DNA of 64,000 nt from an uncultured Collinsella sp. (lineage in GTDB: Bacteria > Actinomycetota > Coriobacteriia > Coriobacteriales > Coriobacteriaceae), in NCBI GenBank assembly GCA_902474885.1, contig CABRXF010000003.1:33062-97061 (forward strand). The letters are read 5' to 3'. The notes under the pieces were generated by a model that saw only the letters and a program-made list of their open reading frames with translations, was not told the DNA's origin and did not search any database. Of this stretch, positions 2,743 to 14,936 are shown in pieces. Every line of letters starts with the position of its first letter. Positions within the stretch are counted from its first letter, which is position 1. Both the position numbers and the translations under genes were made by a program.

Positions 2743-3009
2743 ATGGATGTCGAGATTCATCCCAACGCCAAAAAGCACCTGACGGAAAAGCAGGTGCTTA
2801 GCGCTTGGCTTGCGGTTACCGAGTGCATTCGTCGCGAGTCGGAAGACGAGCCGCCGAGATGGCTTGCCATTGGATGGCTTCCAGACGGTCGAAGTGTGGA
2901 ACTTGTTGCGGTCGAACTAATTCGTGGATGGCTCATTATTCATGCCATGTCTCCGGTTCAGAAGAAATTCTGGCAAGAGATTGAGCGAGCACGGCAAAGG
3001 GGTCGATGA
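2743..3009 (+). CDS. BrnT-like (DUF497-type) toxin of a type II toxin-antitoxin pair
   Basis: 88 aa. GGGAGG ribosome-binding site 6 nt upstream of the ATG at 2743. C-terminal LIIHAMSPVQKKF resembles the BrnT hIIS(A)RKA motif. Its stop overlaps the antitoxin start (ATGA). Confidence 0.5.
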   Translation: MDVEIHPNAKKHLTEKQVLSAWLAVTECIRRESEDEPPRWLAIGWLPDGRSVELVAVELIRGWLIIHAMSPVQKKFWQEIERARQRGR

Positions 3010-3293
3010 TGGGCAAGACATATACGACCGCTAATGGTCAGGTTGTAACGGATGAAATGATTGACGCGTGGTGTGAGTCGTACGGGCGCGGAGAGTTTCC
3101 GGATGGCGAACACACCGTTGGTGGGATCGTGCATGGACGGCCCCCGCTCTCGGGTGAGGGGACGGCAACGCTATCGGTCAAGATTCCTCTGGGAATGAAG
3201 GAAGCTATTCGTCGGCGGGCGGCTGCCGAGGGGATGACGCCAAGTGAGTTTGCCCGTGCGGCCCTGAGTGAAAAACTTCTTGCTGCCGGTTGA
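3006..3293 (+). CDS. BrnA-like ribbon-helix-helix antitoxin
   Basis: 95 aa. C-terminal RHH (LSVKIPLGMKEAIRRRAAAEGMTPSEFARAALSEKL) matches BrnA/CopG-type antitoxins. Translationally coupled to the upstream toxin. Confidence 0.55.
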   Translation: MMGKTYTTANGQVVTDEMIDAWCESYGRGEFPDGEHTVGGIVHGRPPLSGEGTATLSVKIPLGMKEAIRRRAAAEGMTPSEFARAALSEKLLAAG

Positions 3294-3428
3294 TGCTTCT
3301 GACGTGCCGTTCTATAGGAGCGAGATCGTGGCCGATGTCGTGCTCAAAAACTTTTTTAAAATTCTCGGTTGACCGGAGCGCGTCCTTGGTTATACTAATC
3401 AAGCCTTGAAACAAGGCACACCTCAAAT

Positions 3429-3484
<56 letters not shown>

Positions 3485-3504
<20 letters not shown>

Positions 3505-3731
3505 TGAATTGACTAGGACCTCTGCAAAGGGGTCCTTTTCTTTTATGTGGCCCTTGCACGGAATCGAACCCCGTGAGGGCGCGGAGCTGAGGAAACGCGA
3601 TAGCGTTTGCCAGCGTAGCTCGCAAGGCGCGGAAGCGCCGCAGCGGTCCGCACGCGCGGAGCGCGGGCGCGATTCCCTTCCCCGCCACCTTGAATTGACT
3701 AGGACCTCTGCAAAGGGGCCCTTTTCTTTTA
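3485..3731. repeat. 61-bp direct repeat (3485-3545 and 3671-3731, one mismatch). It comprises the 3' end of tRNA-Phe from the T-loop onward plus the downstream terminator hairpin, and flanks a 125-bp GC-rich insert. Resembles an attL/insert/attR arrangement.
   Basis: gattcccttccccgccaccttgaattgactaggacctctgcaaagggg(t/c)ccttttctttta occurs twice. The insert begins with an inverted T-arm-like tggcccttgcacGGAATCGAACCccgtg. Confidence 0.8.
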
Positions 3732-3970
3732 CCGAGGGCTCCTGCGGAAAATGCATCCCATTATTGAGCGGAAAAACGGAACGAGCTTTCCGGCACGCGT
3801 GTGCATTTCGGCGCGCCATCTCGGGCCCGTCTGCCCGGACATTCCTCCCACTTTTGCGCCACTTTGTAGACCGTTCGGTCGCCTGTCCGCACGCGCGGGT
3901 ATACTCAAAACGATACTTTTCCTATGCAATACGATGCAGGCTCGACCTGCGCGATTCGAAGGGGGCCGTG

Positions 3971-5986: not shown

Positions 5987-7588
5987 ATGGATCAAAGCAA
6001 GCCTTCGTTCTTTATCACGACGCCCATCTACTACGTCAACGCCGATCCGCACCTGGGCACGGCTTATTCCACCATCATCGCCGACGTCCAGGCTCGCTAT
6101 CGCCGCTCCGCCGGCTATAACGTCAAGTTCCTGACCGGTATGGACGAGCATGGCGAGAAGGTCGCCGAGGCTGCAGCCAAGCACAACATGACGCCGCAGG
6201 AGTGGACCGACAGCCAGGCTCCGCACTTCAAGGAGCTGTGGAGCAAGCTCGAGATTTCCAACGACGACTTCATCCGCACCACCGAGCCGCGCCAGCATCA
6301 TGCCGTGCAGTACTTGTGGGAGCGCATGAAGGAGTCCGGCTACCTGTATAAGGGCAGCTACGATGGTTGGTACTGCGTGCCTGACGAGACCTACTTCACT
6401 GATACGCAGGTCCAGAAGGGCGACGAAGAGTACGGCAGCGTTGGCCAGCACCTGTGCCCCGACTGCCACCGTCCGCTTGAGCGCGTGCAGGAGGAGTCCT
6501 ACTTCTTTAAGCTTTCCGCCTTCCAGGACAAGCTGCTCAAGCTCTATGACGAGCACCCCGATTTTGTCGAGCCCGCGTTCCGCATGAACGAGGTGCGTAG
6601 CTTTGTCGAGGGCGGCCTTAACGACCTTTCCGTGAGCCGCACGAGCTTTGACTGGGGCATTCAGGTCCCGTTTGACGAGGGTCACGTTACCTATGTGTGG
6701 TTCGACGCGCTGCTCAACTATATGACGGCCGTCGGCTACGGCGTCGATACCGACGAGGCCCGTGCCGAGCTGGCCTATCGCTGGCCCGCGCAGTTCCACA
6801 TCGTGGGCAAGGACATCATCCGTTTCCACTGCGTCATTTGGCCGGCCATGCTCATGGCCATTGGCGAGGCTCTGCCCGAGCACGTCTTTGCCCATGGCTT
6901 CCTGACCGTGCGCAATGCCGAGACCGGCAAGGCCGAGAAGATGTCCAAGAGCCGCGGTAACGCCATCGCTCCGCAGGATGTTATCGACATGCTGGGCGTC
7001 GAGGGCTATCGCTACTACTTTATGACCGACGTGGTGCCCGGCACCGACGGCGCCATCAGCTTCGAGCGCATGGAGCAGGTCTACAACGCCGACCTGGCCA
7101 ACAGCTGGGGCAACCTCATCTCGCGTTCGCTCAACATGAGCGGCAAGTACTTTGACGGTTGCGCGCCCGCCAAGCCCGCATCGTTCGATGCGTTCGACAA
7201 CCCGCTGGCAAAGATTGCCGACGGCCTGGTCGATCGCTACATGGCCAAGATGGACGTGCTCGATTACGGTGGAGCTAAGGACGAGGTCATGGAGCTCATC
7301 CATGCCGCCAACCACTACATCGAGGACTCCGAGCCTTGGGCGCTTGCCAAGGACGAGGCCAAGGCTGACGAGCTGGCGTTTGTGATCTACAACCTGCTCG
7401 AGGCCATCCGCATTGCCGCTCACCTGCTGATGCCGCTCATGCCCCAGACTTCTGCCGAGGCCCTGCGTCGCCTGTCCTGCGAGGACGAGGCCGCGAGCGA
7501 CGACCTCAAGGGCATTTGCGCTTGGGGCCTGCTTGCCGGTGGTCAGCCCGTCGAGAAGGGCGAGCCGCTGTTCCCGCGTCTGGGCTAA
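5987..7588 (+). CDS. metG: Methionine--tRNA ligase (short form)
   Basis: TTPIYYVNADPHLGTAYS (HIGH region) and KMSKSRGN motifs. 533 aa. Confidence 0.9.
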   Translation: MDQSKPSFFITTPIYYVNADPHLGTAYSTIIADVQARYRRSAGYNVKFLTGMDEHGEKVAEAAAKHNMTPQEWTDSQAPHFKELWSKLEISNDDFIRTTEPRQHHAVQYLWERMKESGYLYKGSYDGWYCVPDETYFTDTQVQKGDEEYGSVGQHLCPDCHRPLERVQEESYFFKLSAFQDKLLKLYDEHPDFVEPAFRMNEVRSFVEGGLNDLSVSRTSFDWGIQVPFDEGHVTYVWFDALLNYMTAVGYGVDTDEARAELAYRWPAQFHIVGKDIIRFHCVIWPAMLMAIGEALPEHVFAHGFLTVRNAETGKAEKMSKSRGNAIAPQDVIDMLGVEGYRYYFMTDVVPGTDGAISFERMEQVYNADLANSWGNLISRSLNMSGKYFDGCAPAKPASFDAFDNPLAKIADGLVDRYMAKMDVLDYGGAKDEVMELIHAANHYIEDSEPWALAKDEAKADELAFVIYNLLEAIRIAAHLLMPLMPQTSAEALRRLSCEDEAASDDLKGICAWGLLAGGQPVEKGEPLFPRLG

Positions 7589-9506: not shown

Positions 9507-9593
9507 GCGGGCGTGGCGGAATTGGCAGACGCGTACGGTTCAGGTCCGTATGGGGGCAACCCCATGAAGGTTCAAGTCCTTTCGCCCGCACCA
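9507..9593 (+). tRNA. tRNA-Leu (anticodon CAG)
   Basis: GCGGGCGTGGCGGAATTGGCAGAC...anticodon loop TTCAGGT...long variable arm...GGTTCAAGTCC...CGCCCGCACCA. Confidence 0.85.
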
Positions 9594-9600
9594 TTAAATG

Positions 9601-9631
9601 AAAGAGCTCCCAGCAATGGGAGCTTTTTTGT
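9601..9631 (+). terminator. Rho-independent terminator after tRNA-Leu
   Basis: GAGCTCCCAgcaaTGGGAGCTTTTTTG. Confidence 0.7.
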
Positions 9632-9685
9632 TACGGGCCGTTTTTGGCAGATTTGACCTATCGATTTCGCGCGGCAGATGCCCCT

Positions 9686-14593: not shown

Positions 14594-14670
14594 GCGGCGT
14601 TACCTCAGCTGGATAGAGGGTCTGACTACGAATCAGAACGTCATAGGTTCGAATCCTATACGCCGCACCA
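14594..14670 (+). tRNA. tRNA-Arg (anticodon ACG)
   Basis: GCGGCGTTACCTCAGCTGGATAGAGG...anticodon loop CTACGAA...GGTTCGAATCCTAT-ACGCCGC-A-CCA. Confidence 0.85.
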
Positions 14671-14936
14671 ATCGAACTTAAAGCCTCCGGCAACGGGGGC
14701 TTTTCTTTTAGGCGGACGCCGCATGGATTCGAACCTCGGTCGAGGCGCGGGCGTCAAGAAAACGCGGAGCGTTTTTAGCCCGCGGGCGAGTCCGCCGGCA
14801 GGCGGGCGAAGCCGGTGCGAATCCGCGCAAGCGGATACGCGGAATCCTATACGCCGCACCAATTGAAATTGAAAGCCTCCGGCAACGGGGGCTTTTCTTT
14901 TAGGCAGACGCTGCATGGATTCGAACCTCGGTCAAT
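14651..14936. repeat. Roughly 93-bp direct repeat (14651-14743 and 14842-14936, ~90% identity). Each copy comprises the 3' end of tRNA-Arg from the T-loop onward, a terminator hairpin, and the start of a GC-rich insert. About 1.5 tandem units with a 191-bp period.
   Basis: gaatcctatacgccgcacca-at(c/t)gaa..aagcctccggcaacgggggcttttcttttaggc(g/a)gacgc(c/t)gcatggattcgaacctcggtc occurs twice. Confidence 0.8.

Follow-up and report, generated by a model that had tools for sequence, protein, structure and literature searches.

Why does the 3' end of a tRNA-Phe gene in a gut Collinsella, together with its terminator, occur twice on either side of a short GC-rich insert? Within the 64,000-nt stretch of Collinsella DNA analysed here (hereafter the window), a first-pass annotation made from sequence alone had described a 61-bp duplication around 125 bp of intervening DNA, and read the insert either as the scar of an integrated element later deleted or as a miniature non-autonomous element mobilised in trans. 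To evaluate the observation, we located tRNA-Phe(GAA) with ARAGORN and Rfam (tRNA, 67.2 bits) and searched the window for repeats. The segment 3485-3545 recurs at 3671-3731 with one mismatch (3533 T, 3719 C) and a spacing of 186 bp, giving two matches in the window and none in 100 shuffles, and the duplication described beforehand is therefore real. The repeat starts at G57 of the T-loop, with C56 (3484/3670) also matching, and runs through the acceptor 3' strand, a 14-nt trailer and an intrinsic terminator, while the tRNA itself is left intact. The mismatch weakens the stem of the second terminator. The insert (3546-3670) is 125 bp and 71.2% GC, against 59.6% for the window, has no other copy in the window by short-word blastn, and contains the palindrome that had been noted. 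The first-pass annotation missed a perfect 13-nt inverted copy of the T-arm within the insert (3560-3572 against 3478-3490), here called the antiT box. The features of the locus are as follows.

3429-3503 (+), tRNA-Phe(GAA), with T-loop T54-T60 at 3482-3488 and a promoter-like site at 3369-3396.
3485-3545 (+), repeat copy R1: tRNA nt 57-76, trailer and intrinsic terminator (hairpin 3515-3536 plus T-run).
3546-3559 (+), hypervariable spacer, of which the first about 5 nt (TGTGG) belong to the repeat in many strains.
3560-3572 (+), antiT box GGAATCGAACCCC, the exact reverse complement of tRNA-Phe nt 50-62 (3478-3490); its 5' part also pairs with 3670-3676 (helix P1, present in the minimum-free-energy fold).
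3570-3579 (+), hairpin H1', CCC-GUGA-GGG.
3584-3621 (+), helix P2 (3584-3588 with 3617-3621) enclosing hairpin H2 (3593-3608), the palindrome AAACGC-GATA-GCGTTT.
3626-3639 (+), hairpin H3, GGCGC-GGAA-GCGCC.
3649-3669 (+), hairpin H4, CGCACGCGC-GGA-GCGCGGGCG, ending immediately before R2.
3671-3731 (+), repeat copy R2: tRNA 3' part, trailer and second terminator (terminator-like stem 3705-3718 plus T-run).

The annotation had also placed a BrnT/BrnA toxin-antitoxin pair immediately upstream of the tRNA, but Pfam does not support this label. The 88-aa ORF (2743-3009) has no Pfam hit, and the 95-aa ORF (3006-3293) has only sub-threshold hits to RHH_1 (E 0.0024; 18.2 bits against a cut-off of 20.5) and CopG_antitoxin (15.7 bits against a cut-off of 28). 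These neighbours play no evident part in what follows.

Direct repeats of a tRNA 3' end starting in the T-loop are the usual footprint of integrase-mediated integration. The locus was compared among related strains, as the annotation had proposed. Among contigs encoding exactly the downstream GH5 protein, two have clean empty sites consisting of tRNA-Phe and a single terminator (contigs L004 and L007), one is occupied on near-identical flanks (L002), and many short-read contigs break inside the repeat. In contigs not selected for this insert, occupancy is 5 of 9. More distantly, C. tanakaei-like genomes (RsmI 70% identical) have an empty tRNA-Phe site, and one intermediate species keeps only a decayed antiT stump with no core. 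A pattern derived from the insert found 61 human-gut metagenome contigs; apart from two disrupted by IS insertions (L041 and L060), those extending far enough on both sides show the same R1-insert-R2 structure. We had considered L041 and L060 as second genomic sites or full elements, but both are IS insertions into modules, and L041 also joins two module loci. None of 58 tRNA-Phe loci carries a larger element. The insert has no room for a gene, and no recombinase gene lies in or beside it, the neighbours being a DUF192 protein, the two small ORFs, GH5, RsmI and MetG. A coding function is argued against by loop indels of 1 nt and by stem-compensating changes.

Quantitative comparison of 43 distinct sequences further distinguished the insert from decaying DNA. 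Gene diversity is 0.001 in the tRNA, 0.06 in the R1 trailer, 0.27 (0.271) in the 14-nt spacer after R1, where 10 of 14 columns vary, 0.04 in the antiT box, 0.057 in the core, 0.012 in the tRNA part of R2, and 0.24 in the DNA after R2. The tRNA part of R2 thus stays nearly invariant although the trailers of R1 and R2 differ within single strains. The 12 variable core columns are loop positions, junction positions, or the two sides of one stem pair. In H4, 3651 (C/T) covaries with 3667 (G/A), at 12-13 versus 30-31 sequences, and 3652 A to C repairs an A.G mismatch. The loops keep a G...A form while they vary and the stems remain constant, with GATA, GCAA, GTAA and GTGA in H2 and GGAA, GUAA, GCAA, GCGA, GAAA and GAA in H3. 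The insert is therefore constrained. We had also considered a tRNA or tRNA-like gene on the minus strand, since the T-arm-like sequence is followed by a possible acceptor strand, but ARAGORN and Rfam find nothing there, and the would-be acceptor strand (3546-3559) is hypervariable whereas its would-be partner is invariant.

The same architecture recurs behind other tRNA genes. In this window, tRNA-Arg(ACG) hosts a second module (14651-14933) whose antiT box matches tRNA-Arg rather than tRNA-Phe, and two further tRNAs bear sites that are occupied in other genomes.

14594-14670 (+), tRNA-Arg(ACG).
14651-14741 (+), Arg repeat copy 1: tRNA nt 57-76, trailer, terminator, spacer and antiT box (14725-14736, GGATTCGAACCT).
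14742-14841 (+), 100-bp Arg core: H1' (14734-14745, overlapping antiT), P2/H2 (14747-14783), H3 (14785-14813) and H4 (14817-14840).
14842-14933 (+), Arg repeat copy 2: tRNA 3' part, trailer, terminator, spacer and a second antiT (about 14917-14928), the stump of a truncated second unit.
9507-9639 (+), tRNA-Leu(CAG) (9507-9593) with trailer and terminator, an empty site with its junction at 9639|9640.
19067-19083 (+), an antiT-only remnant behind tRNA-Ser(GCT) (18920-19010), the reverse complement of 18985-19001.

The tRNA-Leu(CAG) site carries a module with the box GGACTTGAACCT in many other contigs, with an occupancy of 7 of 12 in contigs not selected for it. The tRNA-Ser(GCT) remnant is the one-repeat allele of a locus that carries a full module in 13 of 25 other Collinsella genomes, again in a set not selected for it. 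A scan of one genome per species with the last hairpin of the Arg-type core returned at least 120 loci, and each of the 80 records listed is Collinsella, Coriobacteriaceae or a gut MAG. The 162 units found precede the 3' ends of tRNA-Arg, tRNA-Leu(CAG) or tRNA-Gly(GCC). C. aerofaciens ATCC 25986 carries a Gly module (locus L076). In 1.4 Mb of Collinsella DNA, every classified copy lies behind one of five tRNA genes, a count that leaves out about 30 unclassified profile hits.

The antiT box is an exact complement of the cognate T-arm in all five types. An exact inverse of about nt 52-62 lies within 250 nt downstream of 49/58 Phe, 62/77 Leu(CAG), 57/104 Arg and 22/26 Ser genes, and of 12/36 Gly genes, where only the last Gly gene of its cluster carries a module. 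In contrast, it lies downstream of 0/12 Cys, 0/7 Leu(GAG) and 0/11 Val genes, and no unit was seen behind these tRNAs. A neutral tandem duplication by replication slippage, suggested by two nearly identical, adjacent copies, is refuted by the recurrence of this complex architecture at five tRNAs with homologous filler, by filler 4-5 times less diverse than its flanks, and by the exact cognate box in every type. Similarly, the scar of a prophage or ICE deleted down to 125 bp is rejected, as no larger occupant was found in 58 tRNA-Phe loci, no similarity was found to phage, plasmid or viral DNA, the core is conserved with compensatory changes, and homologous modules of the same size sit at four other tRNAs, on which independent deletion scars would not converge. 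One apparent full-size element at tRNA-Ser (contig L168) proved to be a single extra 1.2-kb gene with no recombinase. The interpretation offered beforehand is thus only partly supported: the T-loop junction and the polymorphism hold, the scar does not, and the miniature element mobilised in trans remains viable but unproven.

The common anatomy, in 5' to 3' order on the tRNA strand, comprises the tRNA, trailer and terminator, a variable spacer, a 12-13 nt box that is the exact reverse complement of cognate nt 50/51-62, a four-hairpin core of 100-110 nt, and the cognate tRNA 3' part again with trailer and terminator, for a module of about 190 bp. Within the core, hairpin H1' (CCN-GNRA-NGG) covaries with the cognate T-stem across module types (CCC/GGG, CCU/AGG, CCUC/GAGG), helix P2 encloses H2, H3 has an outer 3-bp helix and an internal loop that can form tandem G.A pairs, and H4 follows. 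Identity with the tRNA starts at C56 (Phe), G57 (Arg), G59 (Leu, Gly) or A59 (Ser), and the cores end in ...CG(G)A(C), such that all five are compatible with one junction at 58|59, although this last step is inference. At Arg, Ser and Gly the repeat also includes the spacer and the box. Tandem units and truncated second units occur at these three tRNAs, with truncated units following R2 and full tandem units seen in tRNA-Arg arrays (contig L152). At tRNA-Gly, most genomes have different trailers and terminators after R1 and R2, as expected if the incoming unit brought its own.

Structural tests were undertaken on a hand-drawn model with 50 units of the Arg, Leu and Gly types. In total, 92.7% of cells pair, against 27-44% when the partners are slid, and six pairs change on both sides, in 61 cells, which 0 of 500 shuffles reach. 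Homologous H2 in Arg-type copies shows three compensatory pairs, purine-purine pairs are conserved, G.U pairs occur on the + strand, and RNAalifold agrees on the hairpins. A covariance model built from these 50 sequences finds Ser-type units at 84-91 bits and Phe-type units at 39-42 bits, including window 3560-3683, all full length and on the + strand, and scores the Arg module of the window at 152 bits. In the resulting alignment, H3 and H4 have unrelated sequences in the Ser, Phe and Arg types but form the same hairpins; the sequences are related, however, and this cross-type alignment was fitted to the model. Single-sequence minimum-free-energy folds give a junction closed by P1, between the 5' half of the box and the first nucleotides of R2, which encloses four hairpin arms and leaves nt 63-76 as a free tail. 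With RNA parameters the Arg unit folds at z = -3.35 on the + strand and -2.48 on the - strand, and the Phe unit at -1.87 and -0.39. With DNA parameters the corresponding values are -3.15 and -1.53 for Arg, and -2.42 and -0.88 for Phe. The functional form is thus a single + strand, whether RNA or DNA.

Comparison with described families gave no match. In Rfam 15 scans at E up to 10, only tRNA passes, all other matches being below 25 bits and far below their gathering scores, which excludes tmRNA, Y-RNA-like RNAs, group II intron domains and known ribozymes. The Collinsella-1 motif (RF01700; PMC2864571), the one structured-RNA motif already named from this genus and likewise a non-coding hairpin motif found by comparative genomics, is not listed for the Phe or Arg modules and is therefore a different motif. 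A phage or plasmid attP was sought in four pattern scans of viral contigs and two blastn searches, and no hits were found in viral contigs, phage genomes or plasmids. Literature searches found no named equivalent, and the Collinsella candidates in the supplementary tables of a human-microbiome structured-RNA survey (PMC8040213) could not be matched to this motif by sequence.

What the analysis shows is a family of about 190-bp non-coding modules, found here only in Collinsella among the records examined and behind at least five tRNA genes, each anchored at the T-loop of one particular tRNA gene; how they work, including any mobility, guide activity or transcription, we infer from sequence alone. 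Our tentative preference is for a non-autonomous DNA element specific for its cognate tRNA. In this view, a unit of one repeat plus the module would enter by a crossover at or just 3' of T-loop position 58|59, the tRNA would be rebuilt from the element's own copy of nt 59-76, and the native 3' end would be displaced downstream. The antiT box straddles that junction, and we read it as the element's guide or second recombination site for the T-arm, whereas the + strand hairpins would be the folded, single-stranded form seen by an unidentified host enzyme acting in trans. Units would be lost cleanly by recombination between the two repeats and multiply into tandem copies by the same route, and the element may also be transcribed by read-through of the first terminator. 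The T-loop junction, clean empty sites at roughly 50% occupancy, tandem and truncated units, the two terminators at Gly, and the absence of a promoter-like site for a module that sits behind a good terminator favor this reading. In contrast, no integrase, transposase or reverse transcriptase was linked to the modules at the loci examined, no classified copy was found off a cognate tRNA, and no circular or free form is known. Copies group mainly by locus rather than by genome, and homogenisation of cores within a genome, sought as a sign of recent copying, was not seen: Arg and Leu cores in one genome are not alike, although some stem variants are shared between loci, so there is no sign of recent jumps from one locus to another. 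Moving to a new tRNA would need both a new antiT and a new 3' end, conservation with compensatory changes across many species fits a host-selected structure at least as well, and every empty site could result from loss alone.

A structured small RNA made by read-through from the tRNA promoter is nearly as likely, if also doubtful, and the two readings are not mutually exclusive. The P1-closed junction would present a free 3' tail identical to nt 63-76 of the cognate tRNA, ended by its own terminator, and the RNA would act on or with that tRNA in maturation, decoy or repair, the duplication being only the way the gene was built. Supporting this possibility, G..A-type loops occur on the + strand only and stay of that type while varying, the helices covary, the RNA folds are weaker on the minus strands, the module is always co-oriented with the tRNA and always ends in a terminator, and the tRNA part of R2 is conserved while the trailers diverge. 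However, the module has no promoter of its own, lies behind an efficient-looking terminator, matches no Rfam family, and is dispensable at every locus, with roughly half of sites empty. Furthermore, three-nucleotide GNA loops closed by C-G (GCGAAGC-like) are more typical of stable DNA mini-hairpins than of RNA, and the DNA-parameter folds are also significant.

Two further readings are unlikely. The modules may have arisen when a reverse transcriptase copied a tRNA precursor from its 3' end, stopped at the modified base m1A58 (were Collinsella to make it), and switched template to the core RNA, after which the chimeric cDNA recombined into the locus. The same stop limits copying of the tRNA primer to 18 nt in retroviruses, and the uniform 58|59 junction would leave exactly nt 59-76. 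The small hairpin at the antiT/core border, with antisense 51-53, a 4-nt loop and sense 51-53, also resembles a snap-back, but this reading has no other support. R2 extends 5-9 nt past the terminator T-run, beyond the expected transcript end, no reverse transcriptase was linked to the modules, and only their origin, as opposed to their long-term conservation, would be explained. Less probable still, yet of great interest if true, is an RNA spare-part cassette, in which read-through transcription would yield a scaffolded RNA carrying a fresh copy of tRNA nt 59-76 with a normal trailer, and the antiT as a 12-13 nt splint complementary to nt 51-62 that spans exactly the 58|59 joint. A tRNA body cut in the T-loop, for example by a tRNase toxin, could dock on the splint next to the spare tail and be religated or used as a two-piece tRNA. 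The DNA-level twin of this idea is a mobile element that programmes its insertion point in the T-loop with the same built-in guide.

The nearest known kinds each fail at least one defining test. Integrative elements with a T-loop crossover and their integrase-less, att-flanked derivatives (CIME-type elements) share the tRNA 3' direct repeat, rebuilding of the tRNA from the element side, clean loss by repeat-repeat recombination and tandem copies. The present element, however, is only about 190 bp and carries no gene, has homologous cores at five tRNAs, each with its own cognate 3' end, an exact antisense T-arm box and hairpins under selection on one strand, and lacks a detected full-size parent or attP-bearing phage or plasmid. 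REP, REPIN, BIME and MITE-type repeats are likewise short, GC-rich, hairpin-forming, non-coding, multi-copy and polymorphic for presence, with stems conserved by compensatory change and mobilisation that would depend on an enzyme in trans. Here, classified copies occur only directly behind a cognate tRNA and always in one orientation, carry target-derived sequence on both sides, and have no identified RAYT or transposase. In place of terminal inverted repeats and a short target-site duplication, there is only a 6-7 bp inverted match between antiT and the start of R2, with flanking repeats of 61-90 bp of tRNA end and terminator. By analogy only, elements that act as folded single strands (IS200/IS605 guide sequences, CTX-phage-type folded attP, integron attC) share strand-specific hairpins, a short sequence complementary to the target across the joining point, and an inverted copy of the target site about 70 nt from the junction, as in integrated CTX-type prophages. 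No HUH or Xer-type partner is known here, the 12-13 nt Watson-Crick guide is far longer than the 4-nt IS608 guides, and the long direct repeats are lacking in IS200/IS605 insertions. Split and permuted tRNA genes and T-loop introns (archaea, Cyanidioschyzon) and RNase P external guide sequences share a break point at the structurally tolerant T-loop positions 58-60 and a separate RNA carrying the acceptor 3' strand and CCA, but here the upstream tRNA gene is complete, and no partner 5' half gene, splicing motif or RNase P target was shown. We place this apparently undescribed module as a variant among small non-autonomous tRNA-linked elements, with a small chance that it is something categorically new, either a guide-bearing inserter or an RNA spare-tail cassette.

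Partial tRNA duplications are normally read as footprints of prophages and genomic islands. This case shows that some belong to something else, namely a compact, conserved, structured module that carries both a copy of the last 18 nucleotides of the tRNA and an exact antisense copy of its T-arm, at several tRNA genes of an abundant human gut genus. If it is a mobile element, it would be a very small tRNA-specific element with a built-in guide to its target, of interest for programmable insertion; if it is an RNA, it would be a new class of tRNA-linked non-coding RNA. In either case, it cautions against automatic att site calls and explains recurrent assembly breaks and strain polymorphism behind tRNA genes in Collinsella metagenomes.

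Just downstream of R2, the second copy of the tRNA-Phe repeat, lies a hairpin unit, CGGAAAnnGCnTCCC...GGGAnGCnnTTTCCG (window 3745-3795; contig L007, 1680-1915; contig L002, 150-400), which is present once in the window and as four tandem copies in other strains. This constitutes a second, independent length polymorphism in the same spacer. The tRNA-Phe gene itself has a U4.C69 mismatch in its acceptor stem (window 3432 and 3497, tRNA positions 4 and 69), which was flagged by covariance-model scanning with cmscan and is invariant in all related contigs. Upstream of tRNA-Phe, the adjacent 88-aa and 95-aa ORFs (window 2743-3293) are a possible ribbon-helix-helix antitoxin pair, and in some strains an internal deletion replaces the pair with a single 112-aa ORF (contig L001, 1240-1578; contig L004, 2160-2498). 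The two ORFs had been labelled BrnT/BrnA in the first-pass annotation, but this identification could not be verified. Elsewhere in the window, an aspS RNA match (RF02930, 49709-49792) scored 76 bits and represents the only non-tRNA Rfam family in the window above its gathering score.

Insertion sequences were found in association with modules in three contigs (L041, 96-1450; L119, about 4480 onward; L060, 1-880). The same IS, with a zinc-ribbon transposase and the 25-bp terminal repeat GGCTTATAGGACAAAATGTGTGTCC, sits inside modules in two of these; in L041 it joins the Arg antiT (the box antisense to the cognate T-arm) to the Phe core, and in L119 it lies in the tRNA-Ser spacer. In L060, an IS110-family (DEDD) transposase gene abuts the junction between the T-run of R1, the first repeat copy, and the spacer. 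The modules may be preferred IS targets.

Variant arrangements were also observed at the other tRNA loci. In many Collinsella genomes tRNA-Arg(ACG) is a tandem array of two or three genes with a period of about 430 bp, in which each gene has its own promoter and most are followed by a module (contig L152, minus strand, about 6250-7190; contigs L112, L146 and L087). In contrast, the window has a single tRNA-Arg gene. A unit with an Arg-type antiT and 5′ half but a Leu-type 3′ end and Leu R2 occurs at the end of the 4.7-kb MAG contig L136 (41-170, minus strand), and is either a real inter-locus recombinant or an assembly chimera across the shared core. Behind tRNA-Ser in contig L168 (4440-5706), a degenerate module start (CTGGGGATTAGAGTCC-GAAA-GGGCGTGAAC...) is followed by a 1.2-kb gene encoding a protein of about 385 aa with a TM2-like hydrophobic segment, with no recombinase at this locus.

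A more distant Collinsella, whose RsmI is 78% identical, provided a further form of the Phe locus (contig L197, 2238-2330). Here, tRNA-Phe is followed by a terminator and a decayed box and first hairpin (CATGGAACCGAACCCACAAGG), with no core or second repeat, which suggests that the Phe module is old and that the box decays once the rest is lost.
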